A DNA stretch of 64,000 nucleotides from Nanobdellota archaeon (GTDB lineage Archaea; Nanobdellota; Nanobdellia; Woesearchaeales; UBA9642), in the NCBI GenBank assembly GCA_021813435.1, contig JAKAKR010000004.1:120972-184971 (forward strand), written 5' to 3'. Shown piece by piece: positions 45,056 through 62,129 of this stretch. The position numbers and the translations under genes are program-made. Below the pieces are notes generated by a model, which saw nothing but the letters and a program-made list of their open reading frames with translations, had not been told where the DNA came from and did no database searches. How positions within the stretch are numbered: the stretch's first letter is position 1; every line of letters begins with the position of its first letter.

Positions 45056-46165
45056 TCATGATTTGATGGATTCAATATTTTTCTTTGAATGGTCTCTTAA
45101 ATATTTATTATATTCTTTTGTTGATAAATTATTAGAGAGAATGTCTGTGTATGGCGTTAAGATTCTCTGCCGTAGTTTGTAGCTGTTAGCGTGTTTTATG
45201 TGTGCTATCCATCCTTCGATGGTGTCGTAGACTTTATCGTATTCAATTTGTTTGTTTTGATATTTCGTAATGAGCAGTGATAATTTCTTTCTGAATTTTC
45301 TGCTGTTTCTTTTTGCAAGGAGTTTGTGATGTGGGTAGATTCTTATTCCTAAGAATCCTACGCCACGTTTTAGGAATGATATTTTTGTTTTTTCTGGATG
45401 AAGCTCTAGGTGCAGGTTTTCTTTAAGGAATTGATTAATTTGTGTTTTATAATCTTCGAGTTTTTCAAGGTGTTCGTCCATGATTACAAAATCATCAACA
45501 TATCTGATGTAATAGTTTACGCGGAGTTTGTGTTTGATAAACCAATCTAATTCATCAAGGTAAATATTTGCAAAAAATTGGCTTGTGAAATTTCCGAGCG
45601 GCATCCCTTTCCTTCTGTTTCTTGTTTGGTGGTTGCTTAGGATTATTCTTATGAGGTTGATGAGTTTTTTATCCTTAATCTTTCTTTGAAGTAAGGTTAT
45701 AAGAATATTGTGGTCTACATTGTCAAAGTAGTGTTTGATATCCGCTTTAAGTATATAACAATTTCTTGTGTTGTTTTGTGATGCTTTCTGTTTGAATTCT
45801 TCGAATCGTTTTATTGCTTTGAGTGTTCCTTTTCCTTTGCGGTTTGCGTAAGAATCGTGGATGAATGTTTTATCGAATAGTGGTTCGATAATATTGCAGA
45901 TTGCGTGGTGTACGATTCTGTCTCTAAAATCCGATTTACTGATTTTTCTGGTCTTTGGATCTCTAAGAATGAATGTTTCTAGAGGTCTTGGCTCGTATAG
46001 TTCGAGTTCTAACTCTTTTTGCAACTGAACAAGATTCTCTTTAAGATTGTTTTCAAATTCTATGACGTACGGTTTTAGTGTCTTATGTTTACGCGCCTTT
46101 TTATACGCAAGGTAGAGGTTATCTTTTGAACAGATTAACGGGTAGAGTTGTTTGTATCTCTTCAT
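45056..46165 (-). CDS. diversity-generating retroelement (DGR) reverse transcriptase
   Basis: RT motifs ILKADIKHYFDNVDH, GMPLGNFTSQFFANIYL (DGR-typical [I/L]GxxxSQ instead of QGxxxSP), YVDDFVI; N-terminal LYLAYKKARKHK...FRDRIVHHAI typical of DGR RTs; template repeat 22 nt upstream of its start. Confidence 0.9.
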   Translation of the reverse strand: MKRYKQLYPLICSKDNLYLAYKKARKHKTLKPYVIEFENNLKENLVQLQKELELELYEPRPLETFILRDPKTRKISKSDFRDRIVHHAICNIIEPLFDKTFIHDSYANRKGKGTLKAIKRFEEFKQKASQNNTRNCYILKADIKHYFDNVDHNILITLLQRKIKDKKLINLIRIILSNHQTRNRRKGMPLGNFTSQFFANIYLDELDWFIKHKLRVNYYIRYVDDFVIMDEHLEKLEDYKTQINQFLKENLHLELHPEKTKISFLKRGVGFLGIRIYPHHKLLAKRNSRKFRKKLSLLITKYQNKQIEYDKVYDTIEGWIAHIKHANSYKLRQRILTPYTDILSNNLSTKEYNKYLRDHSKKNIESIKS

Positions 46166-46279: not shown

Positions 46280-46526
46280 CGATCTTTAGCCCTTTTGCTG
46301 TAACTCTTCACCATTGCTTCAAGATTTCGAAACTGATTCTACTCATTGTCGCAATTGTATGCTCAAAAATCGTAGATTTTTGGCACGCCAGAAATCCGCG
46401 ATTTCTCAGCGTTTTATGACGCTTAATAAGACGCCTTAGCAAAAGAGCGTGTAGCCCCGTACCCGCGCTTAATTCAGGTAAGTCAAGGCGGTGAGAAAAA
46501 TAAAAAGAATATTAAAAAGATTTCTA

Positions 46527-47620: not shown

Positions 47621-48172
47621 ATGGCAAGCCCAAGCAAAGAGAATCAGGTATTAACACTCATCCTCGAGAGCAGCCCACTAAAGAAATGGCATTTTGAAGA
47701 GATCATGAAAGAGGCAAAAGTCACTCGGCTTGTTGCAAACAAGTGGCTCAAGAAATATCTTGCAGAAAAACTTATCATCCGCGTAAAAGAAAAAGGACGA
47801 TTCCCATATTACACTGTAGAGTCGAACAATCCAGTATATTACTCAGCAAAAAGAATATATATGCTCGAGCGATTGCACAGCAGCGGATTATTATCTCGAT
47901 TATTATCATTGACTGGCATAAAAACCATTATCTTGTTTGGAAGCGCAGTAAGAGGTGATTGGTATGCGGGTTCAGATATCGACATCTTCATGCTCGGAAA
48001 TCTTCCGGATTTTGATAAAAAAATTTATGAACAACAACTGCATACCCAGATAGAGTTGCATGTGTTCAAGGACAAAAGAGAGATACATGCAGTAAAAACA
48101 GGACTCATTGCAAACATCATCAACGGTTATGTCCTCAAGGGACAGATCCAAGACATCGTCGAGGTTGCATGA
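47621..48172 (+). CDS. minimal nucleotidyltransferase (MNT) with N-terminal wHTH-like region
   Basis: ILFGSAVRGDWYAGSDIDIF = GSxxRG...SDxDh nucleotidyltransferase motif. Confidence 0.75.
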   Translation: MASPSKENQVLTLILESSPLKKWHFEEIMKEAKVTRLVANKWLKKYLAEKLIIRVKEKGRFPYYTVESNNPVYYSAKRIYMLERLHSSGLLSRLLSLTGIKTIILFGSAVRGDWYAGSDIDIFMLGNLPDFDKKIYEQQLHTQIELHVFKDKREIHAVKTGLIANIINGYVLKGQIQDIVEVA

Positions 48173-48637
48173 ATGAAATTAATAATTGACAATCTTGACA
48201 GCACCTATAAATCATGCATGTCTAACGGCATGATCAAAGAGAAAACTATTGATATCGAACTCATCCGTTCACTTAAGCTTGTCGCAGAACAAGGAATACG
48301 ATTCATCAACAGCAAGTCAAAAGACATTCCAAAACACAGTACTGACTGGACATTTGTATTCAGGGATTATTATGAGGCATTACGCGGGCTTATCGAAGCA
48401 TATATACTTTTTGATGGGATCGTTGCAGACAATCACCAATGCAAGAACGCATATGTCTGCTTCAGGCATCCAGAACTTGAACTCGATTGGGCATTTCTTG
48501 AAACAATCAGATTAAAACGTAATGCGATAAATTATCGTGGGCAATTATTAAAATATGATGATTGGAAATTATTAAAATTAAAATTTGGATTGCATATCAA
48601 TGCGCTGAAAAATGAGATTGAGAAAAAATTAGGGTAG
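48173..48637 (+). CDS. HEPN-domain protein (partner of MNT; putative toxin)
   Basis: Start overlaps MNT stop (TGAATG); helical protein with RLKRNAINYRG resembling HEPN Rx4-6H motif (Y in place of H). Confidence 0.55.
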   Translation: MKLIIDNLDSTYKSCMSNGMIKEKTIDIELIRSLKLVAEQGIRFINSKSKDIPKHSTDWTFVFRDYYEALRGLIEAYILFDGIVADNHQCKNAYVCFRHPELELDWAFLETIRLKRNAINYRGQLLKYDDWKLLKLKFGLHINALKNEIEKKLG

Positions 48638-50006: not shown

Positions 50007-50222
50007 TTATTTTTCCCCACGCATCTTTGCATCAATCTTGGTATTGTCCTGGATCTCCTGCTCGCGCAAGTGATCGATAGTCTTGAGCAAAACGTCAATC
50101 TCACAGATTGCGCCGTAAATCTGGTGCTGGCGCGCCGGGTCAAGCTTCGGGTTCTTTTCAAGAAGATCAATAAGATTCGCTTTCCGCTTTTCGTAGAGTG
50201 CGCGTAATTGTCTGAGTGGCAT
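50007..50222 (-). CDS. small hypothetical protein
   Basis: 71-aa helical ORF. Confidence 0.3.
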   Translation of the reverse strand: MPLRQLRALYEKRKANLIDLLEKNPKLDPARQHQIYGAICEIDVLLKTIDHLREQEIQDNTKIDAKMRGEK

Positions 50223-50223
50223 A

Positions 50224-50559
50224 TTAGTTCCCCGGAGGTACTGTTTTTTCCTTATCGATTGTTACTGTTTTTAATTTTTTCTGTTTTGTGATACTTTTCT
50301 TGATGAATCCTGCGATAAAATATTCGAGGCAGTCGATCCCGCAGAAATGCGCCTTCTTGCGGATTGCAGGTTCGCCCCAGACTAAAACAAAGCAATCCTC
50401 TTCGACGCTGTTCCCGCAAACTGGACATTGTTTGCCTTTGATTTTGTAAAACTCCTTCTTGCGATCAATATATTTCTGGACATATCCCTCCTTGAGATCC
50501 TTTTCGAATATGGCAACTTCATCTTCAGAGAGTCCGTCAATGAATTGAGTGTACTTCAT
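50224..50559 (-). CDS. hypothetical protein with Cys4 zinc-ribbon-like motif
   Basis: CPVCGN...CGIDC spacing. Confidence 0.4.
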   Translation of the reverse strand: MKYTQFIDGLSEDEVAIFEKDLKEGYVQKYIDRKKEFYKIKGKQCPVCGNSVEEDCFVLVWGEPAIRKKAHFCGIDCLEYFIAGFIKKSITKQKKLKTVTIDKEKTVPPGN

Positions 50560-51267
50560 CTATTTCACCAGCCGGTTCTTGATTGCAGCCATGATAAATT
50601 TAGGATCAGAGATGATTTGGCTGTTTTTGACCATGTCGATAAAATACTTGTCGTGCCGGTTCAGGCCGTCATTGATCTCGAATTCGTTATGTGTCCAGTT
50701 GATGATCTTCTTTGTCCTGCCGTTCAAGTCCTCGATGAAGAGATTGCTGAATTTTGCCCGTATCTCATCAACGTGGTCAGTGATGAGGAACAGCTCAATG
50801 CTGTCCCGAGTTGTCCGGGTGATGCTGATTGCCCGGCATTTTTTTACAATATCTTCATGCTTGATCATGAACGTGATCATCACCATGATATCCTCGGGGC
50901 TGAGCGCTGTGAGTAGGTTGAAAAACATGCTGTTTGTGGCATCAATGCTGATGGTCTTTTTTTCCGCTGCGCCATTACGTAGTATGGCCAGTTGCACTGC
51001 CTCAATATTTAATGCATATATCTGCTTGGGTTTTCCTGATTGTTTTTTCCCCAAGGGTATTTGTGCGGGGGTTCCGCCTGTAATCATCTCCCCTGTCTTG
51101 ATCCGCTTGATTGTCCCATACGCCTCAAGGAGTTTGAGCTGCTGGATGATATTGGAGATGCTCGTGCTGGTCTTTACTGCAAGTTCGCTTGCGGATTGTG
51201 GCCTTTTTGCAATCTCTGCTACAAGGCTCCACTTTGCATTTGCAAATATCTCGTCTGCATGATCCAT
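50560..51267 (-). CDS. winged-helix transcriptional regulator (ArsR-like N-terminus) with C-terminal domain of unknown function
   Basis: WSLVAEIAKRPQSASELAVKTSTSISNIIQQLKLLEAYGTIKRIK HTH. Confidence 0.55.
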   Translation of the reverse strand: MDHADEIFANAKWSLVAEIAKRPQSASELAVKTSTSISNIIQQLKLLEAYGTIKRIKTGEMITGGTPAQIPLGKKQSGKPKQIYALNIEAVQLAILRNGAAEKKTISIDATNSMFFNLLTALSPEDIMVMITFMIKHEDIVKKCRAISITRTTRDSIELFLITDHVDEIRAKFSNLFIEDLNGRTKKIINWTHNEFEINDGLNRHDKYFIDMVKNSQIISDPKFIMAAIKNRLVK

Positions 51268-51592
51268 GCTTTTTCTGGGAAGATTTATTATATAAATTTT
51301 TCGATTATTAATTATATACTAAAGTTAAATACTTATATTGTAAGTAAAGTTAATTAGTTTAGTAATAACTTAAACATTTTGTGCGTGTTTATAGAAAAAA
51401 ATGTTTTTTTTACTGTCTTATCTGATTTTTTTTGAGCAAAAAATGCCTTAAAAATCATAATATTTATAAACCTTGCTCGCAAGAATGGAAATAGTGTGTA
51501 TTAACGTGCACTACCAGCTAAAATAGTAGGTTTGTAAACAGAATGTATGTTTTAGGGTGTGGAGAAAAAAAGAGGCGTGTCAAGGTAGAGAG

Positions 51593-52870
51593 ATGAGTAA
51601 TCTTAAGGTATTAATGTTTGGATGGGAATTCCCACCGTTCTTCTCAGGCGGGCTCGGTACAGCTTGCTATGGGCTCACAAAGGGATTGCATGAACAGAAT
51701 GTGGATGTCACGTTCGTCATGCCGCAAGGACCAGAAAGCATGCATGCTGAGCATGTTAATCTTATCATCGCTTCAAACATGAAACAGTACCGCATCAAAT
51801 TGACTGCAGTCCCAAGCCTACTCCAACCATATCTTTCTGCAGCAGAGTACACTACAGCATATGAACGGCATGCGGAAAAATTGCAGAATGAATCATTCTC
51901 CGGAAAACTGTACGGGAAAAATATCTATGAGGAAGTCTACCGATTCTCAAAAATCGCAGGACGCATAGCGCAAAGCGAGGAATTCGACATCATCCACTGC
52001 CATGACTGGATGACATTTCCTGCAGGGATCGAGGCAAAACGCATGACCGGAAAACCGCTCATCGTCCATGTCCATGCAACTGAATTCGACAGAACCGGAG
52101 GCAATGGAGTCAACCAGTATGTCTATGACATCGAGCGATCTGGCATGGAATACGCTGATAAAATCATCGCGGTATCACAATTCACCAAAAACAAGATCAT
52201 GGAATGTTATGGCATCCCTGAAGAGAAAATCACTGTAGTGCATAACGCAGTCGATTTTCCCCATGTTGAGCCGCATCATATCAAGGCAAGTGAAAAAGTT
52301 GTGCTGTTTCTCGGGCGATTAACACTCCAGAAAGGACCTGATTATTTCATCGAGGCAGCAAAAAAAGTTCTGGATTTTGATCCGCATGTCACATTCATCA
52401 TTGCAGGTTCAGGGGATATGGAGGCGCGGCTCATTGATCGCGTCGCGCAGTTGGGTATCGGCAACAAGGTCTTGTTTGCAGGATTCCTCAAGGGCGCAGA
52501 TGTTGATCATGCGTATCGTATGGCAGACCTTTATGTCATGCCTTCTGTGAGTGAGCCATTCGGCATAACACCACTTGAGGCATTGCGCAACCGTGTTCCG
52601 GTCATTATCTCCAAACAATCCGGAGTCTCTGAAGTATTGAAGAACAGCCTGAAGGTCGATTTCTGGGATGTTGATGAACTTGCAAATAAGATCATTTCTG
52701 TCCTGAATTATCGCGCCTTGCATCACGAACTTACGACGCATGGCGCGCTTGAGGTGCAGACATTCAACTGGAATGTCCCTGCACAAAAATGTGTTGCAGT
52801 CTACAAGGATGTGCTTGCGCGTCCTCCAGCAACATCTGCGATGATGGAGGTGCTTGCACGCGCAAGATGA
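51593..52870 (+). CDS. GT4-family (GT-B, retaining) glycosyltransferase, glycogen-synthase-like
   Basis: KVLMFGWEFPPFFSGGLG N-terminal motif, FLGRLTLQKGPD and MPSVSEPFGITPLEAL (E-x7-E) motifs. Confidence 0.75.
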   Translation: MSNLKVLMFGWEFPPFFSGGLGTACYGLTKGLHEQNVDVTFVMPQGPESMHAEHVNLIIASNMKQYRIKLTAVPSLLQPYLSAAEYTTAYERHAEKLQNESFSGKLYGKNIYEEVYRFSKIAGRIAQSEEFDIIHCHDWMTFPAGIEAKRMTGKPLIVHVHATEFDRTGGNGVNQYVYDIERSGMEYADKIIAVSQFTKNKIMECYGIPEEKITVVHNAVDFPHVEPHHIKASEKVVLFLGRLTLQKGPDYFIEAAKKVLDFDPHVTFIIAGSGDMEARLIDRVAQLGIGNKVLFAGFLKGADVDHAYRMADLYVMPSVSEPFGITPLEALRNRVPVIISKQSGVSEVLKNSLKVDFWDVDELANKIISVLNYRALHHELTTHGALEVQTFNWNVPAQKCVAVYKDVLARPPATSAMMEVLARAR

Positions 52871-52876
52871 TACACC

Positions 52877-54148
52877 ATGGTCAATATCTGCCTCTACTTC
52901 CATGTCCACCAGCCGTACCGTATGAGAAAGTATTCTGTATTTGACATCGGACATAATTTGCACTATTTTGACGAGGAAAAAAACCGTGAGGTACTGCGCA
53001 AGGTCGCAACGAAATGTTATCTTCCGGCAAATAACATCATGCTTGAACTTATCAATAAATATAAGGACACTGACCGGAAATTCAAGGTATCTTATTCAAT
53101 CACTGGCGTCATCCTTGAACAATTCGAGAGATACGAACCTGCAGTCCTGGAGTCATTCAGGAAGCTTGCGGCAACAGGTTGCGTGGAATTTGTTTCAGAG
53201 ACTTATTATCACTCGCTTGCATTCCTCTATTCTAAGGATGAATTCAAATCACAGGTCGAGATGCATCGGCAAAAGATCAAATCACTTTTCGGGCAGGAGC
53301 CGACTGTCTTTCGCAACACGGAACTCATCTACAACAACGAGTTGGGCAAATTTCTTGAGTCTATGGGATTTACTGCAACACTCACTGAAGGCGCGGATCA
53401 CATCATGGTCTGGCGCAATCCCAATTATGTCCACCGGATACAGGATGGGACCATGCGGCTTCTTCTCAAGAATTACAAGCTCAGCGATGATATCGCATTC
53501 CGTTTCGGACAAAAATCCTGGAATGAATACCCTCTTAGCGTCGATAAATACGCCCAATGGATCCATGCAAGCGATGGGCATGCAGTGAACCTTTTTATGG
53601 ATTATGAGACATTCGGCGAGCACCAGTGGGAAGACACCGGGATATTCGAATTTCTCAGGTCACTTCCGGACGCGCTCTTCAAGAATCCTGGAACGACGTT
53701 TTTGACTGTCTCTGAACTTGCGCGATATGAGCCGGTCGGCGAGCTGGACATTCATAATTTTATTTCCTGGGCAGACATCGAACGCGACCTTTCTGCATGG
53801 AAGGGAAACCATATGCAGGACTCAGCGCTTAGTGAACTTTACGCCATTGAGACTGCGGTCAAGGAATCACGCAATGCTGCACTCCTCGAGGATTGGCGCA
53901 AGCTCACGACCAGCGATCACTTCTATTATATGTGCACAAAATACTTCAATGACGGCGATGTCCACAAATATTTCAATCCCTACGAGACGCCCTACGAATC
54001 CTATATCAATTTCATGAATATCCTCAATGATGTTGTTCACCGCCTGAATCGAATCAATCGGGAAAAACGGCTTGCAATAGAAATGCAGCAGGGCTACCAT
54101 GCCCCCCGGCCATCGATCACTGAAAAACCCGTCAATATCATCCAATGA
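52877..54148 (+). CDS. glycoside hydrolase family 57 enzyme (alpha-glucan acting: amylase / 4-alpha-glucanotransferase / branching-type)
   Basis: N-terminal LYFHVHQPYR GH57 signature, catalytic regions ETFGEHQWE. Confidence 0.8.
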   Translation: MVNICLYFHVHQPYRMRKYSVFDIGHNLHYFDEEKNREVLRKVATKCYLPANNIMLELINKYKDTDRKFKVSYSITGVILEQFERYEPAVLESFRKLAATGCVEFVSETYYHSLAFLYSKDEFKSQVEMHRQKIKSLFGQEPTVFRNTELIYNNELGKFLESMGFTATLTEGADHIMVWRNPNYVHRIQDGTMRLLLKNYKLSDDIAFRFGQKSWNEYPLSVDKYAQWIHASDGHAVNLFMDYETFGEHQWEDTGIFEFLRSLPDALFKNPGTTFLTVSELARYEPVGELDIHNFISWADIERDLSAWKGNHMQDSALSELYAIETAVKESRNAALLEDWRKLTTSDHFYYMCTKYFNDGDVHKYFNPYETPYESYINFMNILNDVVHRLNRINREKRLAIEMQQGYHAPRPSITEKPVNIIQ

Positions 54149-54245
54149 TTCCACTATAGATTATTCCACTATAATCCCGCTAACGATATTCCTGTTTTCA
54201 GGACAGCATTCAGAACTGTTTCAATAAAAAAAGAGGTGAGACGTC

Positions 54246-54767
54246 ATGCCACGTAAGAAAAACGTGCATGCTGCAGAGACATCGCAAGAGATTGCTGCAG
54301 CATCGCTTGAATCAAAGATCGGCAAAACTCCAGATGCTTCTGCGCATTCTGCAGGCGCAAAACGCCGCCGCAATGCAAATCCAAAGGATCCGATTATTTC
54401 TCCTGCAACTACTCCATCACGCAGTGAAAGCGCTATACCGCGTGATGTATCATCATTTCAAACGCAACTTCACGTGCTGCTCTATCCTCCTATCGCCGAG
54501 CAGCATTATTTCATCCTCTGCACTGGCGGGGTGATTGCGCACTATGGTGAACTAGCGGATTTGCTCTCCGGCATGGGTGATGATATATTCTGTTATCATG
54601 TCACCAGTGAACGCAATGATTTTGCGAATTGGATCCGTGATGTCTTCAATGAACAAGTCCTTGCTGACGAAATTGCAACAATGCATACCTGTGTGGAGAT
54701 GCGCGCAGCAATCTATGAGCATATCCTCAAAAAAGTCCGTGCACTACTCGCGCACAAAGAAGGATGA
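54246..54767 (+). CDS. hypothetical protein with basic disordered N-terminus and conserved 'NDFANWI' domain (paralog A)
   Basis: HYFILCTGGVIAHYGELADLLSGMGDDIFCYHVTSERNDFANWIRDVF aligns with N-terminal domain of 54871..55764. Confidence 0.45.
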   Translation: MPRKKNVHAAETSQEIAAASLESKIGKTPDASAHSAGAKRRRNANPKDPIISPATTPSRSESAIPRDVSSFQTQLHVLLYPPIAEQHYFILCTGGVIAHYGELADLLSGMGDDIFCYHVTSERNDFANWIRDVFNEQVLADEIATMHTCVEMRAAIYEHILKKVRALLAHKEG

Positions 54768-54870
54768 ATGCATGTATGTGAATGAGATAGAACCAGGGTT
54801 TGAAACGAGTATCATGATTTGAAAAGAATAAAACGGTTTGAAAAATAAAAGGGTTTGAAACGAATGGATA

Positions 54871-55764
54871 ATGGGGTGTAAAATGGTCGACGTTCCTTAT
54901 GAAAAGGAATTTGTATTCCATGATGGAAGACGTGCAAAAAGCCTGTCAGAATTATACCGGATACTGCAAACGCTTTCGCGCGACGAATTCCATACTTTTG
55001 TGGACGGATTCAAGAATGATTTTGCCAATTGGATTGCTTTTGTGCTTTCTGATACTGAGCTTGCAGCGCGGTTGCGTGTCGTCTACTCACAGGAACAGAC
55101 ACTGGCGGTCCTCCAGCAAAAACTTTCTGAGCTTGTCGCGCATGAATCCTTTATGCGTTTCACTAAAAAAGAAGCGCCAGAACCTGTTACACCGCCTCTT
55201 ACCGCAGCACGCATCGCGCGTACAGATACTCTGGCGCCTGCAGTACACACACAATCACTGCCCACGCAACCGTCAACAGTAACTGTACCATCTGCAGCAA
55301 GCGTATCCTTGCCGTCATCACAACTTTCGGAATCACCTGTCATTGCAAAAAAAACCAAATGGTACGAATTCTTTATCCGGAAGCGATCAGGAGAAGCAGC
55401 GCTTGCCGACATCAAGAACGCTGCGCTTGCATCAACTGCAAAAATTCCTGAACCCGCCTCATACACTGCAAATCCTGCAGCAGCATCTGTCGATCCAAAC
55501 ACTCCTGCAGCGCCTTCCCGTTCTGCGCAACACAAAGCGCAAAACAAATGGTATGAATTTTTTGTGCGCAAGCGCTCCACTGAACTTGCACTGGATGCTA
55601 TTAAGGCGCATGCAAAAGACGGTCCCATACGGGAGGAAGAGCATCACCGAAAAACACGCCACCCTGTCGACAAAGAGCGGCTCTTTTGGATTACGCTCTA
55701 CACGACGCTTGTGATCATCATCATCGGACTCCTCGGCTATATCCTCTTTTTTAAGAGATACTGA
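54871..55764 (+). CDS. tail-anchored hypothetical protein with 'NDFANWI' domain and tandem KWYEFFxRKRS repeats (paralog B)
   Basis: FVFHDGRRAKSLSELYRILQTLSRDEFHTFVDGFKNDFANWIAFVL; repeats KTKWYEFFIRKRSGEAALADIKNAALA / QNKWYEFFVRKRSTELALDAIKAHAKD; C-terminal TM helix LFWITLYTTLVIIIIGLLGYILFF. Confidence 0.45.
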   Translation: MGCKMVDVPYEKEFVFHDGRRAKSLSELYRILQTLSRDEFHTFVDGFKNDFANWIAFVLSDTELAARLRVVYSQEQTLAVLQQKLSELVAHESFMRFTKKEAPEPVTPPLTAARIARTDTLAPAVHTQSLPTQPSTVTVPSAASVSLPSSQLSESPVIAKKTKWYEFFIRKRSGEAALADIKNAALASTAKIPEPASYTANPAAASVDPNTPAAPSRSAQHKAQNKWYEFFVRKRSTELALDAIKAHAKDGPIREEEHHRKTRHPVDKERLFWITLYTTLVIIIIGLLGYILFFKRY

Positions 55765-55805: not shown

Positions 55806-57767
55806 GTGTTAATGTCCGCGAGAATAACCATGCAAACAACTGCCAACTATCTTTTTGAAGTGTCCTGGGAAGTCTGCAATAAAGTCGGCGGAATACATAC
55901 AGTCCTTGAGAGCAAGGCAGATCTCATGATGCGCGCATACGAAAACTATTTTCTCATCGGTCCCTATTTCGGAAATGCAGCGCGACTCGAATTTTTCTCC
56001 TGCGACATCCCGCAGGAATTCAAGGAAGTCATTGTTGAACTGGCACAGGAAGGGATCACTGTCCACTTCGGAAGATGGGACAGCGTCAAGGACAAGCCTT
56101 ATGTGTTCCTTATCGACTGCACTAACATATTCTCCCAGAAAAATACTATCAAACGCATGTATTGGGACGATTATCAGATCGATTCATTGCGCGGCGCATG
56201 GGATTTTGAGGAACCGCTCATCTGGGGTTATGCAGTCGGAATTCTCATCGAACGCCTGAAACGCAAAGCGCTCATGCAGCACACGGTTGTTGCGCATTTC
56301 CATGAATGGCTTGCAGGCGCTGCAGCGCTCTATCTCAAGAAGCATTGCCCTGCAGTGGCGTGCGTCATGACCACACATGCGACTGTTCTTGGACGATGTC
56401 TTGCAGGAAATGGGCGTGATTTCTATCACTCGCTCGAAACCATCGACCCTTTGCGCGAGGCATACCAGTATAGTGTCGAGGCAAAACATCTTCTCGAATC
56501 AGCCGCTGCGCGTAATGTCGATATATTCACGACGGTTTCTCCCATCACGGCATTGGAGTCAGAGAAGTTTCTTGGCAGAAAACCAGAAATCCTTGTTTTG
56601 AACGGGCTTGATGTCGCTGCGTTCCCTGATTATGAGGCACTTGCAGAAAAACATCATGCGACAAGTGAGAAGATTAAGGAATTTTTAGCATACTACTTCT
56701 TTCCCTACTACCCGTTTGATCTGGAATACAGCAAGATATTCTACACGCTGGGACGGTTTGAATATCGCAACAAGGGATACGATATTCTTATCGATGCACT
56801 TGCACAACTCAATGAACAGCTCAAAAAAGATGCGCGCGAAAAAAAACAATCCGCGCTAGCCGCAGCACGCACACTAGTGTTTATCTTCTGGGTCCCCCTG
56901 GCGACTGCAGGACACAATATTGATCTGCTCGAAAACAAGAATTATTATATGCATATCAAGAATCATCTCGAAACCAATGCGCCAGAGATCCTGAAACGAT
57001 TATTGTATGATCTTGTCTCGAGAAGTTCAGGAAACGCAACAAACACCACTGCAAATACTCCTGTCACAATCGCCGTAAAATCATCTGCAGCAAAAAACCC
57101 CAACGGCCCCGACGGCATAACGTCCGATGCTGTGCAGTATACTGCGCGTTTCATCCACGATATCACGCGTGATCTGCGCCTCTTCGAGCGTGCAGGCAAC
57201 CCGCCGCTGTCGACGCACAATATCCGTGATGCAGGACAAAATCCACTGATTACTGCGCTTGTTACACATGGATTGCTCAATCGCCCGGAGGACCGGGTCA
57301 AGGTGGTGGTCGAACCAGTCTATCTTGATGGAAGCGACGGGTTTATCGATCTTGGGTATTATGATGCAATGGCAGGATGCGATCTCGGGGTGTTTCCGAG
57401 CTATTATGAACCGTGGGGGTATACGCCGCTTGAGAGCGCTGCAGTGGGGGTGCCGGCAATCACCACAGATCTCTCAGGATTCGGGATGTATATGAAAGAT
57501 AAGATGCCCCTGCAGCAATCACCATCTTCTTTGTCAACTCCTCGCGGGATCACTATACTTGACCGATTCCAGAAAAGTGCTGCAGAATGCACCGCGCAAT
57601 TAGTGCATGAACTTCATGCGCATCTCTTTTATGATCATGCCCAGCAGATAGAATCGCGATTGGATGCAAAACGCGCAGTACTCGTCGCAGATTGGAAGGT
57701 ATTGATTGATAATTATATTGCCGCGCATAATCGCGCAGTGGATCAAGCAAAACGCATCTCTGCGTGA
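55806..57767 (+). CDS. eukaryotic-type glycogen synthase (GT3 family)
   Basis: LFEVSWEVCNKVGGIHTVL, VAHFHEWLAG, TTHATVLGR, GVFPSYYEPWGYTPLE - near-identical to conserved blocks of yeast/animal glycogen synthases; likely true start MQTTANY at 55830. Confidence 0.9.
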   Translation: MLMSARITMQTTANYLFEVSWEVCNKVGGIHTVLESKADLMMRAYENYFLIGPYFGNAARLEFFSCDIPQEFKEVIVELAQEGITVHFGRWDSVKDKPYVFLIDCTNIFSQKNTIKRMYWDDYQIDSLRGAWDFEEPLIWGYAVGILIERLKRKALMQHTVVAHFHEWLAGAAALYLKKHCPAVACVMTTHATVLGRCLAGNGRDFYHSLETIDPLREAYQYSVEAKHLLESAAARNVDIFTTVSPITALESEKFLGRKPEILVLNGLDVAAFPDYEALAEKHHATSEKIKEFLAYYFFPYYPFDLEYSKIFYTLGRFEYRNKGYDILIDALAQLNEQLKKDAREKKQSALAAARTLVFIFWVPLATAGHNIDLLENKNYYMHIKNHLETNAPEILKRLLYDLVSRSSGNATNTTANTPVTIAVKSSAAKNPNGPDGITSDAVQYTARFIHDITRDLRLFERAGNPPLSTHNIRDAGQNPLITALVTHGLLNRPEDRVKVVVEPVYLDGSDGFIDLGYYDAMAGCDLGVFPSYYEPWGYTPLESAAVGVPAITTDLSGFGMYMKDKMPLQQSPSSLSTPRGITILDRFQKSAAECTAQLVHELHAHLFYDHAQQIESRLDAKRAVLVADWKVLIDNYIAAHNRAVDQAKRISA

Positions 57768-57795: not shown

Positions 57796-58752
57796 ATGGA
57801 ACTTCGCAAAGATTATGTCCTGAATCGTTATGTGATTGTCGCGCCCGTACGGGGCAGCAGACCGTATGATTTCAGCCAGAAGATTTTTGACGATCAATCT
57901 GAAAAAGTGTGCTATTTCTGTCCGGGCAATGAACAGCTCGCTTCAGCAGAAAAAGGACATATCGGCGAGCCTTGGAAGATCCGCTGGTTTGACAATAAAT
58001 ATCCCGCGCTTGAACCGACAGGAAAATCAGTCATCACAACTGACAATACGTTCTTCACGTTCTCTGATGCGTACGGGTACCACGAGGTTATCGTCGAGAC
58101 CAATGAGCATTGGAAACAGCTTTTTGATTTTAGCGAACGGGACATGAAGGAATTGCTCGAAGTCTACAAGCAGCGCATCGAGGATTTATCCGCAAAAGAG
58201 CATATCGCTTATGTCCATGTCTTCAAGAATCACGGACGGGAAGCAGGAACATCAATCCGGCACACGCACACGCAGATCATGGCACTCAATCATATCCCGC
58301 ATCTCATCGCTGAAGAGCTCGCGGCAGTCGCAGCGTATGAGCGTTGCCCGTATTGCGACATCCTCAATATCGAGAAGACATCGCATCGACGCTGTTTTGA
58401 GAATGCCGGTTTTGTCGCATTCACTCCCTATGCATCGCGATTCAATTATGAACTGTGGATCTTTCCCAAGAAACATTATCTTTCCATCACTGAACTTGAC
58501 GGTTATGAACTTTTTGAACTTGCAGATATCCTCAAGAAGGCGCTCCTCAAACTCCGCGACGTCAATGTCTCCTATAATCTTTTCATCCATAATTCTCCTC
58601 AACCTTACATTGGAAGCGGAAAACGGGGATTGCACTTCCATATCGAGATCACTCCTCGCATTGACTTATGGGGAGGATTTGAGCACGGTTCAGAAAGTTA
58701 TATCAACCGGATCACTCCTGAAGACGCTGCGCGATTCTACCGTGGAGAATAA
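57796..58752 (+). CDS. GalT-like HIT-family nucleotidyltransferase (hexose-1-phosphate uridylyltransferase or ADP-glucose phosphorylase type)
   Basis: CYFCPGNE Zn site, HTHTQIMAL (HxHxQ active site). Confidence 0.7.
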   Translation: MELRKDYVLNRYVIVAPVRGSRPYDFSQKIFDDQSEKVCYFCPGNEQLASAEKGHIGEPWKIRWFDNKYPALEPTGKSVITTDNTFFTFSDAYGYHEVIVETNEHWKQLFDFSERDMKELLEVYKQRIEDLSAKEHIAYVHVFKNHGREAGTSIRHTHTQIMALNHIPHLIAEELAAVAAYERCPYCDILNIEKTSHRRCFENAGFVAFTPYASRFNYELWIFPKKHYLSITELDGYELFELADILKKALLKLRDVNVSYNLFIHNSPQPYIGSGKRGLHFHIEITPRIDLWGGFEHGSESYINRITPEDAARFYRGE

Positions 58753-59013: not shown

Positions 59014-60006
59014 ATGAAGATTGTTATTCCCGTCGCCGGATTTGGGACGCGGTTAAAGCCGCATACATTCACAAAGCCAAAGCCGCTCTTGCATGTCGCA
59101 GGAAAGACAGTTCTCGAGCATGTCCTTGACAGCCTGAAAGAATTGGAATTTGATGAGGTGATATTCATCACCGGCCATCTGAAGGAGAAGATTGAGGCAT
59201 TCATGAAGGACCGCTATGCCTTCAAATGCACGTTCATCGAGCAGAAGGTGCGGGATGGCACTGCAGGCGCAATACGATTAACAGAATCCATCGTGAGTGG
59301 CGAGGAACTCCTCATTGTCTACGCTGATACGATATTCGAAGCGGATTTTGACATAGTAAAGAAAGCGCATGCGGATGCCGATGTCCAGGGGATCATCTGG
59401 GTAAAAGAAGTTGAGGATTATCAGCGATTCGGGGTCGCAGTGCTCGATGCGCAGGGATTCATGACAAAGTTTGTCGAGAAGCCCGACACGCCGATCTCAA
59501 AACTTGCAAATATCGGGGTCTATTATATCAAGGATTCAACATTGCTCTTTGCAGGAATAAATCATATCTATACCAGAAAGATCACCACCAAGGGCGAATT
59601 CTTTCTGACCGATGCAATCCAATACATGATCGACCACGGCGCAAAAATCAAGACCGCGCCGGTCAAGGGATGGTATGATTGCGGAGCATTCGGCACACTT
59701 CTTGAGACTAACCGGATACTGCTTGAAAAAAATCACCCGCATAAGTCAAAGCCGGAAAACAGCGTCATTGTCGATCCGGTATTTATCGACGATGATGTGG
59801 TGATCGATCATTCTATTATCGGACCGAACGTCTCCATTGCAAAAGGCTGCGAGATAAAAAATTCCATTGTGAGAAACTCGATCATCGACACTGATGCAAC
59901 GCTGGACAATATCAATATCATCAACTCGACCATCGGAGCGCATGCGGTTGCTGCCGGATCATCAAAGAAGATGAATATCGGTGATTCATCAGAGGTACGA
60001 CAATAG
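59014..60006 (+). CDS. sugar-1-phosphate nucleotidyltransferase (NDP-glucose pyrophosphorylase) with C-terminal left-handed beta-helix
   Basis: IPVAGFGTRLKPHTFTKPKPLLHVAGK signature; hexapeptide repeats in C-terminal third. Confidence 0.85.
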   Translation: MKIVIPVAGFGTRLKPHTFTKPKPLLHVAGKTVLEHVLDSLKELEFDEVIFITGHLKEKIEAFMKDRYAFKCTFIEQKVRDGTAGAIRLTESIVSGEELLIVYADTIFEADFDIVKKAHADADVQGIIWVKEVEDYQRFGVAVLDAQGFMTKFVEKPDTPISKLANIGVYYIKDSTLLFAGINHIYTRKITTKGEFFLTDAIQYMIDHGAKIKTAPVKGWYDCGAFGTLLETNRILLEKNHPHKSKPENSVIVDPVFIDDDVVIDHSIIGPNVSIAKGCEIKNSIVRNSIIDTDATLDNINIINSTIGAHAVAAGSSKKMNIGDSSEVRQ

Positions 60007-60122: not shown

Positions 60123-62129
60123 ATGAAACTCTCTTTTGAACTGGGAAAAAGCAGTCTCTCTGTCGCAAAAGACACTGCACTCCTGCAGGAACGTCATGCA
60201 CTGCTGTTTCTTGCGCATCCTGCCGGGCAGTATATTGCGCTTCCTTTTGCAGGAACAAGCGCAACCCAGTTTCAGGGATATCATACTGTCTGTTATACCC
60301 GCACTGCGCAGAACTATCTTCTCTATAAGACAGTCGAGGACCTGCATATCGATGCAGCGCTTACGAAAGTCGTGCATGGATTGGATTTCTTTGAACGGCA
60401 CTACACAAAAAAAATCTCTGAGCGATTCACCCTCACGAAGGATGCACTCCTCTACACACTCAAAAATTATTCAGGTATAATCACTGTCGAATTGGATTTT
60501 CGCAGGATATTTGATCATCCGGAATTCGGCCGCATCTATGCAGTGTATCCTGCAGAACACGAAGATGATTGTATCATCGTCGAATACACGCAGTACACTG
60601 GTGATGATCTTAAGGATGTTGCGCAAAAGATGTATCTTGCAATCAAGGGCGTAACGCAATTTACGCATAATCCTTCATGGATAAAAAAACAGTACTCTTA
60701 TGATGCATCGCGCGGTACGCAAAGCGAATTCTATGTCTACGATGGATTGCGCATCACCTGCAGGAAGAATCTCTTACTTGCATTCGGATGCGCTGATGAC
60801 AAATCCGAAGCGCAAAAGAAGGCTGCACGCGCCTTTGATGCATCAACACTGACCACCCGACAGCATAAAGAGTATGTTGAGACTGTGCTATCAAAGAAAC
60901 TCCGTATTGCGCAGTATGCCGGAACTCCTGTCGCATTCGCGTACGCCTCAAGTATTGCAACACTCACCAGTCTCTGGACAACGGTTCTTCTCGACGGGAA
61001 AAAGATCTCTGGCCTGTGGGCAGGGCTTCCGTGGTTTTTTCAGTATTGGTCGCGGGATGAATTGGTATCGCTCTACGCCCTGATGCTTGAAGGGCACTAT
61101 CATGACGCAAAACAGGTATTATTGCAGCAGCTGCAGCGCTTAGGAAAGGATGGGCGATTGCAGAATATCGCGCCAGGCGCAAATCTTGCAAGCACACTGG
61201 GCAGCGCTGATGCCGCAGGATGGCTCTTCAAGCGCATCGATGATTATCTTGGACTTCTTGAATCGCGCGATGAATTCGACAAGACATTCACACTTGCAGA
61301 GATAACCTACCTGCGCAATAATCTTTCCCATGCAATCGATGCGCTCCTGCGTGAACATGCGTCTGACGGGCTTATACAGAATGCGGCACTCGAGACATGG
61401 ATGGATACCTATTACCACAACGGCGATTATTCTGCGGATTTTCGTGATGGCGAGCGCATCGAGATCCAGGCATTGTTTCTTGCAATGCTCCGGTTGATGA
61501 ATAAACTCGAGTATCTGACTGCAAATAAGATGGTGAAAAAAAAGAATGTATTGGTAAAGATTATGCAATCACCGTACGCTGCACTGGAAGAGGAATTCCG
61601 GAACCGTGTCCGCAAGAGATTTCTTGCAACGCATGACAGCGCGCTCTATCTGCATGATGCCGCAGGAGGAGAATATTATGATGTGATGCGCCCCAATATT
61701 TTTCTTGCCTATTACCTGTATCCTGCGCTGTTGTCGGATACTGAATGGGAACAGGTCTTTGACCGCGCGCTTGAACGTTTATGGTGTGAATGGGATATCG
61801 GTGGCGGGATTTCGACAATCGACAAGTCGCATCCGCTCTACTCTGGACAGTATACTGGACAGGACAATAAGAGTTATCATCGCGGAGACAGCTGGTTCTA
61901 TACTAATAATATCGCAGCGCTATGCCTGCACCGATTGAATCAGAAAAAATACGCTGCCTTTATCAAGAAGATTCTTGCTGCATCAACTGAAGACATCCTT
62001 TACTCCGGATTTATCGGCGCAGCTTCAGAACTCAGCAGCTCTGCAGCGTACAAGCCCGGCGGATGCTTTGCACAGACCTGGAGCATTGCAACCTATATCG
62101 AACTTGTGCATGAAATGTTTATTGAATAA
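60123..62129 (+). CDS. glycogen debranching enzyme-like (amylo-alpha-1,6-glucosidase / GDE C-terminal (alpha/alpha)6 domain)
   Basis: GLPWFFQYWSRDELVSL, GDSWFYTNN motifs typical of GDE_C barrel. Confidence 0.75.
   Translation: MKLSFELGKSSLSVAKDTALLQERHALLFLAHPAGQYIALPFAGTSATQFQGYHTVCYTRTAQNYLLYKTVEDLHIDAALTKVVHGLDFFERHYTKKISERFTLTKDALLYTLKNYSGIITVELDFRRIFDHPEFGRIYAVYPAEHEDDCIIVEYTQYTGDDLKDVAQKMYLAIKGVTQFTHNPSWIKKQYSYDASRGTQSEFYVYDGLRITCRKNLLLAFGCADDKSEAQKKAARAFDASTLTTRQHKEYVETVLSKKLRIAQYAGTPVAFAYASSIATLTSLWTTVLLDGKKISGLWAGLPWFFQYWSRDELVSLYALMLEGHYHDAKQVLLQQLQRLGKDGRLQNIAPGANLASTLGSADAAGWLFKRIDDYLGLLESRDEFDKTFTLAEITYLRNNLSHAIDALLREHASDGLIQNAALETWMDTYYHNGDYSADFRDGERIEIQALFLAMLRLMNKLEYLTANKMVKKKNVLVKIMQSPYAALEEEFRNRVRKRFLATHDSALYLHDAAGGEYYDVMRPNIFLAYYLYPALLSDTEWEQVFDRALERLWCEWDIGGGISTIDKSHPLYSGQYTGQDNKSYHRGDSWFYTNNIAALCLHRLNQKKYAAFIKKILAASTEDILYSGFIGAASELSSSAAYKPGGCFAQTWSIATYIELVHEMFIE

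Follow-up and report, generated by a model that had tools for sequence, protein, structure and literature searches.

Two adjacent genes in the glycogen cluster of a Nanobdellota archaeon, referred to here as open reading frames (ORFs) A and B, encode single-module members of the DUF5752/OrfY family (Pfam PF19027), a family that forms a near-constant third gene behind a gene pair for a glycosyltransferase of family GT4 or GT5 (GT4/5) and a glycoside hydrolase of family GH57. The two genes lie at 54246-54767 (+) and 54883-55764 (+) of a 64,000-nucleotide (nt) stretch of contig JAKAKR010000004.1 (assembly GCA_021813435.1), called the window in what follows, and code for a soluble protein of 173 residues (ORF A, "A-type") and a protein of 293 residues with a tail-anchored layout (ORF B, "B-type"). 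Because the family holds this near-constant position, A and B are probably accessory components of alpha-glucan (glycogen) metabolism, and since the non-homologous enzymes encoded beside the family share a substrate, the role would concern the pathway or its polymer rather than one enzyme. A more specific proposal is held tentatively, at a probability somewhat below even: A and B may be accessory proteins without catalytic function that hold the glycogen machinery, or the glycogen particle, at the membrane as a scaffold or tether.

The shared module and its family

A sequence-only reading of the window had described A and B as paralogues that share one domain, and the comparison bears this out: BLASTP aligns the two proteins at 28% identity over 83 residues (E=4e-8), both match the same Pfam model, and the shared module, of about 85 residues, has F, G, L, V, NDFANWI and LA as invariant columns in an alignment of 15 A-type and B-type sequences. 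The signature, [KR]-N-D-F-[AS]-x-W-[IV], follows a beta-hairpin and two helices and is present in both ORFs, as NDFANWI at 54615-54635 (+; residues 124-130) in ORF A and at 55015-55035 (+) in ORF B; 130 sequences show no variation in its D, F and W.

The domain, for which that reading could offer no named family, is Pfam DUF5752 (PF19027), whose function is uncharacterised and for which a crystal structure, 4CSO, has been solved. Against a gathering cutoff of 23 bits, ORF B scores 29.0 bits and ORF A 22.5 bits, 0.5 below the cutoff; orthologues of ORF A score 27-42 bits, several of them being named "DUF5752 family protein" by NCBI, and a profile built from A-type and B-type modules finds proteins annotated as DUF5752 with E values down to 1e-37. 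AlphaFold2 (AF2) models place the module of ORF A at residues 80-173 (54483-54764, +) and that of ORF B at residues 1-96 (54883-55170, +), in both cases as a beta-hairpin followed by five helices with a predicted local distance difference test (pLDDT) score of 93-98. In both, the third helix begins with NDFANWI, which supplies its N-cap and opening turns; in ORF A this helix spans residues 125-134. The sole solved relative found is 4CSO, OrfY of Thermoproteus tenax, deposited in the PDB as "OrfY protein, transcription factor": Foldseek finds the same fold with a probability of 0.97 for ORF A and 0.84 for ORF B, whose top match is 4cso_D, and profile searches match 4CSO at E=1.5e-3 and 2.7e-4 with both of its motifs aligned (TNDFARWV and RNDFSRWL).

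By sequence, signature and fold, ORFs A and B belong to DUF5752/OrfY, which is already known as a family, of uncharacterised function, and they depart from its canonical architecture, two modules in a chain of about 210 residues, in carrying one module each. A literature search for DUF5752, PF19027 and OrfY found no paper and no published function. The PF19027 model, 208 positions long, is itself a tandem duplication of the module of about 85 residues, with ORF A aligning to positions 125-204 and ORF B to positions 17-104. Taken at face value, these coordinates would make the pair a "split OrfY", with A as its C-module and B as its N-module. That idea was rejected by hidden Markov models (HMMs) of the N and C modules of tandem proteins, which fail to discriminate A-type from B-type modules; the assignment of ORFs A and B to halves of PF19027 is arbitrary. 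A-type and B-type modules form distinct subfamilies, scoring 117-130 bits against their own HMM and 76-89 bits against the other's.

ORFs A and B have no further match in Pfam, NCBIfam or PADLOC and no meaningful one in PHROGs, and an origin of the two genes in a defence system or a phage is without support in PADLOC and PHROGs. Neither protein contains a GT8 or other glycosyltransferase domain (Pfam, NCBIfam), and neither has a Pfam match to a carbohydrate-binding module (CBM); an identity as CBMs was rejected on that result and on the fold, a beta-hairpin with five helices that is helical and not a beta-sandwich. Both proteins are non-enzymatic. In the models, the conserved F, W, I and V of NDFANWI share one helix face and N-D stands at the helix N-cap, which suggests that the motif has a structural rather than a catalytic role.

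Linkage to the GT4/5–GH57 gene pair

In the window, A and B lie between a GH57 family gene (52877-54148, +; Pfam) and a gene for glycogen synthase (55806-57767, +) that matches PF05693, the eukaryote-type family GT3, at E=9e-125, which is where the sequence-only reading had put them. How general this setting is was surveyed in a genome scan, with one genome per species, that kept 80 module-encoding loci with 10-kb flanks, and in an independent metagenome scan, seeded with a four-sequence alignment of tandem members, that added 80 further loci.

Of the 80 genome loci, 51 have GH57, the GT3 synthase or both inside 10 kb; 48 carry GH57, nearly always together with a GT4/5 gene, and 32 the GT3 synthase. 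The expectation that the domain co-occurs with these genes is thus well borne out: synteny is strongly conserved, and the domain falls in no well-characterised family unrelated to glucan metabolism. In every one of the 48 GH57 loci the first module gene lies directly downstream of GH57 on the same strand, at a distance of at most 250 nt in 47 of them. Because this adjacency persists where the GT3 gene has the opposite orientation (L040, L047, L074 and L084) and where it is absent from the 10-kb flank (e.g. L023, L030, L035-37, L043, L044, L060 and L061), the tightest linkage of the module is to the GT4/5–GH57 pair rather than to the GT3 synthase. The proposed association with the GH57 and synthase neighbourhood therefore stands, with the synthase as the looser of its two elements.

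The metagenome survey found alpha-glucan genes in 40 of 80 loci (22 of the 41 loci of at least 5 kb), with GH57 in 39 and GT4/5 in 32. The order GT4/5–GH57–DUF5752–GH15, with no GT3 gene, recurs in nine of these loci (L123, L124, L134, L143, L147, L167, L171, L175 and L176) and also in L093. The conserved unit is GT4/5–GH57–DUF5752, followed by either the GT3 synthase or the GH15 glucoamylase. Four tandem members from other lineages were compared: P0144 follows a debranching-type enzyme (GDE) gene and a GT3 synthase gene, P0175 has GH57 on one side and a GH15 glucoamylase on the other, P0170 comes after a GH13 alpha-amylase and P0148 is found in an unrelated ParA-like context.

The 51 glucan-linked genome loci hold 21 strict A–B pairs, or about 33 pairs when A-types with a degenerate motif are included, along with eight loci with B alone and four with A alone; a soluble A-type gene followed by a tail-anchored B-type gene is the dominant arrangement in DPANN archaea. 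Several divergent Woesearchaeota contigs keep the cluster order of the window, one of them without A. Full DPANN-type clusters are also deposited under the names "uncultured Methanosarcinales", "Alphaproteobacteria bacterium", "Woesebacteria" and "Binatia" (L015, L016, L018, L036, L037 and others). These oddly named contigs are probably mislabelled or misbinned metagenome-assembled genomes (MAGs), and the taxon labels of the family should therefore be read with care.

The surveys also bear on the view that the module is a generic interaction or oligomerisation domain without a specific role in glycogen metabolism, whose place in the cluster is an inherited DPANN gene order. The family is large and varied in architecture and context; the genome loci are drawn mostly from a single superphylum, and glucan genes are not nearby in 29 of 80 genome and 40 of 80 metagenome loci. 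Inherited order alone, however, sits poorly with a GH57 adjacency that holds even where the remainder of the cluster has been extensively rearranged, or with the recurrence of the linkage in other architectures and with other enzyme families (GH15, GH13, and GT3 without GH57). Moreover, if 20-kb segments were drawn at random from a genome of about 1 Mb, only some 2% of them would be expected to include its one glycogen cluster. A purely generic domain in an inherited position is accordingly judged improbable.

ORF A and its basic tail

The start of ORF A is preceded by a Shine-Dalgarno sequence, GAGGTGA (54233-54239, +), six nt 5' of the ATG, and a protein identical to ORF A (P0010) occurs on public contigs. 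As had been read from the letters, its N-terminus is long, basic and disordered: residues 1-68 (54246-54449, +), rich in Ser, Pro, Thr and Ala (47% of residues), have a pI of 10.3 and are modelled without secondary structure at a pLDDT of 51-67. The MPRKK start is kept in A-type orthologues, whose basic tails contain 5 to 27 Lys/Arg residues, or 3 in one very short tail. Two sets of direct repeats flank the gene. Specifically, the TATA-like repeat AT[GT]ATTCCACTATA is present in two copies just 5' of ORF A (54145-54173), and AGGGTTTGAAACGA, in two exact copies and one degenerate copy, lies between ORFs A and B (54795-54863); both may be promoter or operator elements.

A different role suggested by such features is that of a regulatory pair, in which the module or the tail of A would bind DNA or a regulator, and membrane-bound B would sequester A, or another DUF5752 protein, and release it on a signal, thereby controlling the transcription of the glycogen genes. 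Sequestration of this kind has parallels in the capture of Mlc by PtsG and of a sigma factor by its anti-sigma factor. The strongly basic A-type tails, typically with 5 to 27 Lys/Arg, the direct repeats 5' of A and between A and B, and the "transcription factor" name that the PDB depositors gave to OrfY would all suit a regulator, and a regulator of alpha-glucan genes would also be expected to adjoin different enzyme families. Conversely, A and B match no helix-turn-helix (HTH) or other DNA-binding family in Pfam or NCBIfam, a conserved HTH gene, divergently transcribed, is already present in the cluster, and B stands alone, without a soluble partner, in eight loci. Fusions to CheW, KaiC, MoxR, TrxR-like proteins and receptor tails, listed below, would moreover be unusual for a DNA-binding domain. 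Regulation of this kind is thus unlikely, while being a serious competitor of the membrane scaffold.

ORF B, its linker repeats and its predicted membrane anchor

ORF B could start at either of two ATG codons, the upstream one, at 54871, giving a protein of 297 residues (54871-55764). The second ATG, at 54883 (MVDVPYEKEF...), is most likely the start, because it is preceded by GGGGTG, because gene callers chose it on the identical public contig (GCA_027347435.1, DAIEQV010000002.1), and because all homologues begin there, with MV/MI..(P/S)YEKEF.

Behind the N-terminal module comes a low-complexity linker (residues 97-260; 55171-55662, +) that is predicted to be disordered (pLDDT 46-65; Ser, Pro, Thr and Ala together 47%); B-type linkers differ in length and sequence among homologues. 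Within it lie the two repeats that the sequence-only reading had picked out after the domain, KKTKWYEFFIRKRSGEAALADIK... (55348-55446, +) and AQNKWYEFFVRKRSTELALDAIK... (55537-55635, +). They share the pattern KWYEFF[IV]RKRS.E.AL..IK, with 16 of 33 residues common to both copies, and are repeated at the DNA level as well, over 37 nt at 81% identity and a spacing of 189 nt. Repeat 2, modelled as a low-confidence helix (residues 222-242 in the AF2 model), is the copy kept in related B-types, about 45 residues ahead of the transmembrane (TM) helix, with the W and FF columns conserved. The motif is limited to the window's own B-type subclade, most B-types being without it, and its Tyr varies between Y and F across homologues. 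A function of KWYEFF as a general docking motif, for instance for the synthase, was rejected on the grounds of this confinement; the KWYEFF subclade is also the subclade with an adjacent GT3 gene, a correlation that is confounded by phylogeny.

The protein ends in a single TM helix (residues 261-290 of 293; 55663-55752, +), modelled at a pLDDT of 96-98 and followed by the three-residue tail KRY. Its consensus, EN.LW..LY..L..II.LL.YK, is conserved in the window's B-type subclade and confined to it. With one TM helix near the C-terminus and a folded soluble module at the N-terminus, ORF B has, as already noted from its sequence, the layout of a tail-anchored membrane protein, for which insertion into the membrane is predicted.

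The Tyr of the repeat raises the question of whether A or B serves the GT3 synthase as a protein primer in the manner of glycogenin, which would account for how chains are begun by archaeal GT3 enzymes. The cluster does hold a synthase of the eukaryote type, and the DPANN equivalent of glycogenin has been called unresolved (PMC11046441). A primer of this kind would nonetheless lack a GT8 or any other glycosyltransferase domain, its acceptor position would be Y or F, in a motif that most B-types do not have, and its family would be tied more tightly to GT4/5–GH57 than to GT3. Priming by A or B is for these reasons highly improbable.

Architectures of the family and weighing of the proposed role

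At E<=1e-3 an exhaustive profile search returned 4,916 family representatives, defined as clusters at 50% identity, of which 3,156 reach E<=1e-10. A-type proteins, of 90-170 residues, consist of a single module behind a Lys/Arg-rich tail; B-type proteins, with at least 60 representatives, start with the module and run through a variable linker to a TM helix at the C-terminus. Other architectures comprise the tandem OrfY-like proteins and coiled-coil or acidic proteins of 400-460 residues that end in two modules. As many as 63 of the 150 best family hits carry two or three modules in one chain, and the fusion partners are many, so the module is a cytoplasmic adaptor, promiscuous in its partners and with a tendency to operate pairwise, and is not intrinsically a "glycogen domain". 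One apparent fusion of the module to a GT3 synthase, in L025, was rejected, as stop codons separate two adjacent genes; in this Altiarchaeales MAG (L025, 7805-9952) an A-type gene of 111 residues lies immediately upstream of genes for a GT3 synthase and a GDE, and no GH57 gene is found in the 7.8 kb upstream of it.

The membrane scaffold proposed for A and B builds on observed family membership, fold, layout and synteny, from which we infer the pairing of A with B, insertion into the membrane, a binding partner and tethering. ORF B would be inserted in the cytoplasmic membrane through its C-terminal helix, with a flexible linker of about 160 residues keeping its module on the cytoplasmic side. 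ORF A would act as a soluble module, with acidic lipids or nucleic acid as possible ligands of its basic tail. Since the modules of this family are mostly found in twos, within a single chain or in neighbouring genes, those of A and B would probably function jointly. Through protein-protein and possibly protein-glucan contacts, the pair would bring the GlgA-like, GH57 and GT3 enzymes, or a nascent particle of glycogen, to the inner membrane face.

Several observations weigh against this role. First, the intrinsic activity of the module is generic, because the module occurs in many non-glycogen settings and because 29 of the 80 genome loci, mostly with large multidomain forms, have neither GH57 nor GT3 nearby. 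The module is fused to KaiC-like ATPases, recurrently, to HerA/DUF87 giant proteins (also with HerA/CarboxypepD_reg), to a MoxR AAA+ ATPase, to a TrxR-like oxidoreductase (a flavoenzyme), to CheW and to long coiled-coil proteins, and it forms the cytoplasmic C-termini of type-I, signal-peptide-bearing membrane proteins (examples of these fusions being L026, L049, L058, L069, L042, L064, L079 and L041/L045/L085, and P0132, P0150, P0158 and P0162). Among about 30 multidomain members examined, none fuses the module to a glycogen enzyme. The link between the two genes and the glycogen cluster that the sequence-only reading proposed is upheld, and the role it suggested for them, as accessory factors of the glycogen granule or of membrane tethering, is plausible; a glycogen-specific nature of their domain is not upheld, given its fusions to KaiC, HerA, MoxR, TrxR-like, CheW and receptor-tail partners. 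Second, both surveys were seeded with members from glycogen clusters and ranked by similarity, so that their percentages (64% in the genome scan) overstate the linkage across the family as a whole. Third, a heterodimer of A and B would be proposed by analogy with tandem proteins, because the A and B modules do not map onto the tandem N and C modules. In AF2 the KWYEFF helices were not docked with confidence onto the module of ORF B, all-helical modules are atypical as carbohydrate binders, and OrfY carries its depositors' label of transcription factor.

The same breadth of fusions has been considered in favour of another function, in which the module is a sensor of a small ligand (a sugar, sugar phosphate, nucleoside diphosphate (NDP)-sugar or second messenger), allosterically coupled to the proteins to which it is attached or adjacent, as PilZ is. 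Promiscuous fusion to ATPases, CheW and receptor tails is consistent with a sensor, as are the very strong conservation of the polar signature K/R-N-D-F-x-x-W, often after H-H-V, and the presence of the module beside several unrelated alpha-glucan enzymes. In contrast, the helical periodicity of NDFANWI suggests core packing and capping rather than a pocket, the His pair is not kept in the B-type consensus, and the literature search found no ligand of 4CSO; a sensor is distinctly unlikely.

A bolder extension of the scaffolding role, which we consider quite unlikely, is that DUF5752/OrfY modules are a helical class of glycogen-targeting domain not recognised before, and that in DPANN archaea A and B together are a membrane receptor pair that nucleates or tethers glycogen particles, with the GT5-like, GH57 and GT3 enzymes, at the cell membrane.

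The rest of the cluster and of the window

The cluster of the window starts from a divergent trio of genes and continues on the + strand in the order GT4/5-like, GH57, A, B, GT3, GalT-like, NDP-sugar pyrophosphorylase and GDE. The first of these + strand genes (51557-52870, +) codes for a predicted GT4/GT5-like alpha-glucosyltransferase that is distant to archaeal GlgA and GlgM; its PDB sequence matches, all at E ~1e-15, are about equally distant and comprise GlgM (a GT4 maltose-1-phosphate synthase), BshA and Pyrococcus abyssi GlgA (GT5). The window GH57 has no PDB relative at E<=1e-5 in a PDB sequence search. Downstream of the GT3 synthase, Pfam and NCBIfam identify a GalT/HIT-like uridylyltransferase (57796-58752, +), a sugar-1-phosphate nucleotidyltransferase (59014-60006, +) and a GDE_C debranching-type enzyme (60123-62129, +).

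The divergent trio (50007-51267, -) consists of an HVO_A0114-like HTH protein of 235 residues, recognised by Pfam HTH matches, a Cys-rich protein of 111 residues that carries CPVCG...C..C, and a helical protein of 71 residues. Many of the 80 genome loci show it in synteny with the glycogen cluster, and it is probably the dedicated regulator unit of the cluster.

Two further features lie apart from the cluster. An RT-16 RNA (RF03019; 55.8 bits against an Rfam cutoff of 50) is found at 46281-46488 (-), with an RVT_1 reverse-transcriptase ORF (about 45056-46165, -) directly downstream on the same strand; by sequence match, these are a reverse transcriptase and its putative cognate structured non-coding RNA, forming one unit in a DPANN MAG. 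At 47621-48637 (+), a nucleotidyltransferase of 183 residues (PF01909/Polbeta) adjoins a partner of 154 residues without a Pfam match, an arrangement that resembles toxin-antitoxin pairs of the MNT/HEPN type.

Comparison with known systems and significance

The closest known system is DUF5752/OrfY itself, as represented by 4CSO, with which A and B share sequence family, signature and fold, and whose tandem members are also found in alpha-glucan clusters. PF19027/OrfY is, however, a soluble two-module chain of about 210 residues, whereas A and B have one module each and are encoded by separate adjacent genes; ORF A adds the basic disordered tail, and ORF B adds the linker of about 160 residues, the repeated KWYEFF motif and the predicted C-terminal membrane anchor. 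OrfY is also a divergent member, with about 20% identity and an insertion ahead of the NDF motif. The orfY gene is presumably part of a sugar-metabolism operon of T. tenax.

In function, the nearest analogies are eukaryotic: Stbd1, the glycogen-targeting subunits of protein phosphatase 1 and the C-terminal synthase-binding peptide of glycogenin are non-catalytic and place glycogen or the GT3 synthase at a defined site; Stbd1 is membrane-anchored, at its N-terminus, and such targeting proteins use a CBM20 or CBM21 beta-sandwich or a synthase-binding peptide. The likeness of ORF B to Stbd1-type proteins is an analogy of role, in that it is predicted to be membrane-anchored, is non-catalytic and is encoded beside a GT3 synthase; there is no kinship of sequence or fold, the module of A and B is helical, and ORF B would be anchored at its C-terminus. 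PilZ, a small promiscuous receptor domain often linked to polysaccharide synthases, offers a second parallel, since DUF5752 also occurs alone, in tandem or fused to many unrelated proteins, often beside polysaccharide-synthesis genes. Its fold and sequence are unrelated to those of PilZ.

A precedent comes from Sulfolobus acidocaldarius, in which amyA, coding for a GH57 protein, is co-transcribed with glgA. Glycogen accumulation there depends on both genes, and in early-exponential cells about two thirds of the glycogen is recovered in the membrane pellet (PMC8158581). The need for amyA and glgA, together with glycogen that pellets with membranes, provides a precedent for a membrane scaffold. 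The window cluster starts with the same adjacent pair of GlgA-like glycosyltransferase and GH57 genes. It differs in that the Sulfolobus cluster, as described, is without a DUF5752 gene and without a GT3 synthase, and in that the glycosyltransferase of the window is only distantly related to characterised GlgA or GlgM and its GH57 is without a close solved relative.

If the modules were indeed a helical class of glycogen-targeting domain, A and B would be a prokaryotic counterpart of the eukaryotic proteins that target and tether glycogen, and the fusions with KaiC-like, CheW, MoxR and receptor-tail partners would couple signalling and remodelling machines to the carbon store. That identity would also explain the need for a GH57 "amylase" in archaeal glycogen synthesis and how the GT3 synthase works without glycogenin.

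The GH57 "amylase" was unexpectedly required for glycogen synthesis in Sulfolobus (PMC8158581), archaeal GT3 synthases are uncharacterised, the DPANN equivalent of glycogenin is an open matter and the role of the GT4-like enzyme is unclear (PMC11046441). Synteny gives DUF5752 its first well-supported functional context, with a practical value that is modest until a binding partner is found. Across many archaeal lineages, DUF5752 is a near-constant third partner of the GT–GH57 pair, often as a soluble and a tail-anchored protein encoded side by side, and it offers a concrete candidate, open to test, for an organising or regulatory factor that is missing from the picture of archaeal glycogen synthesis.

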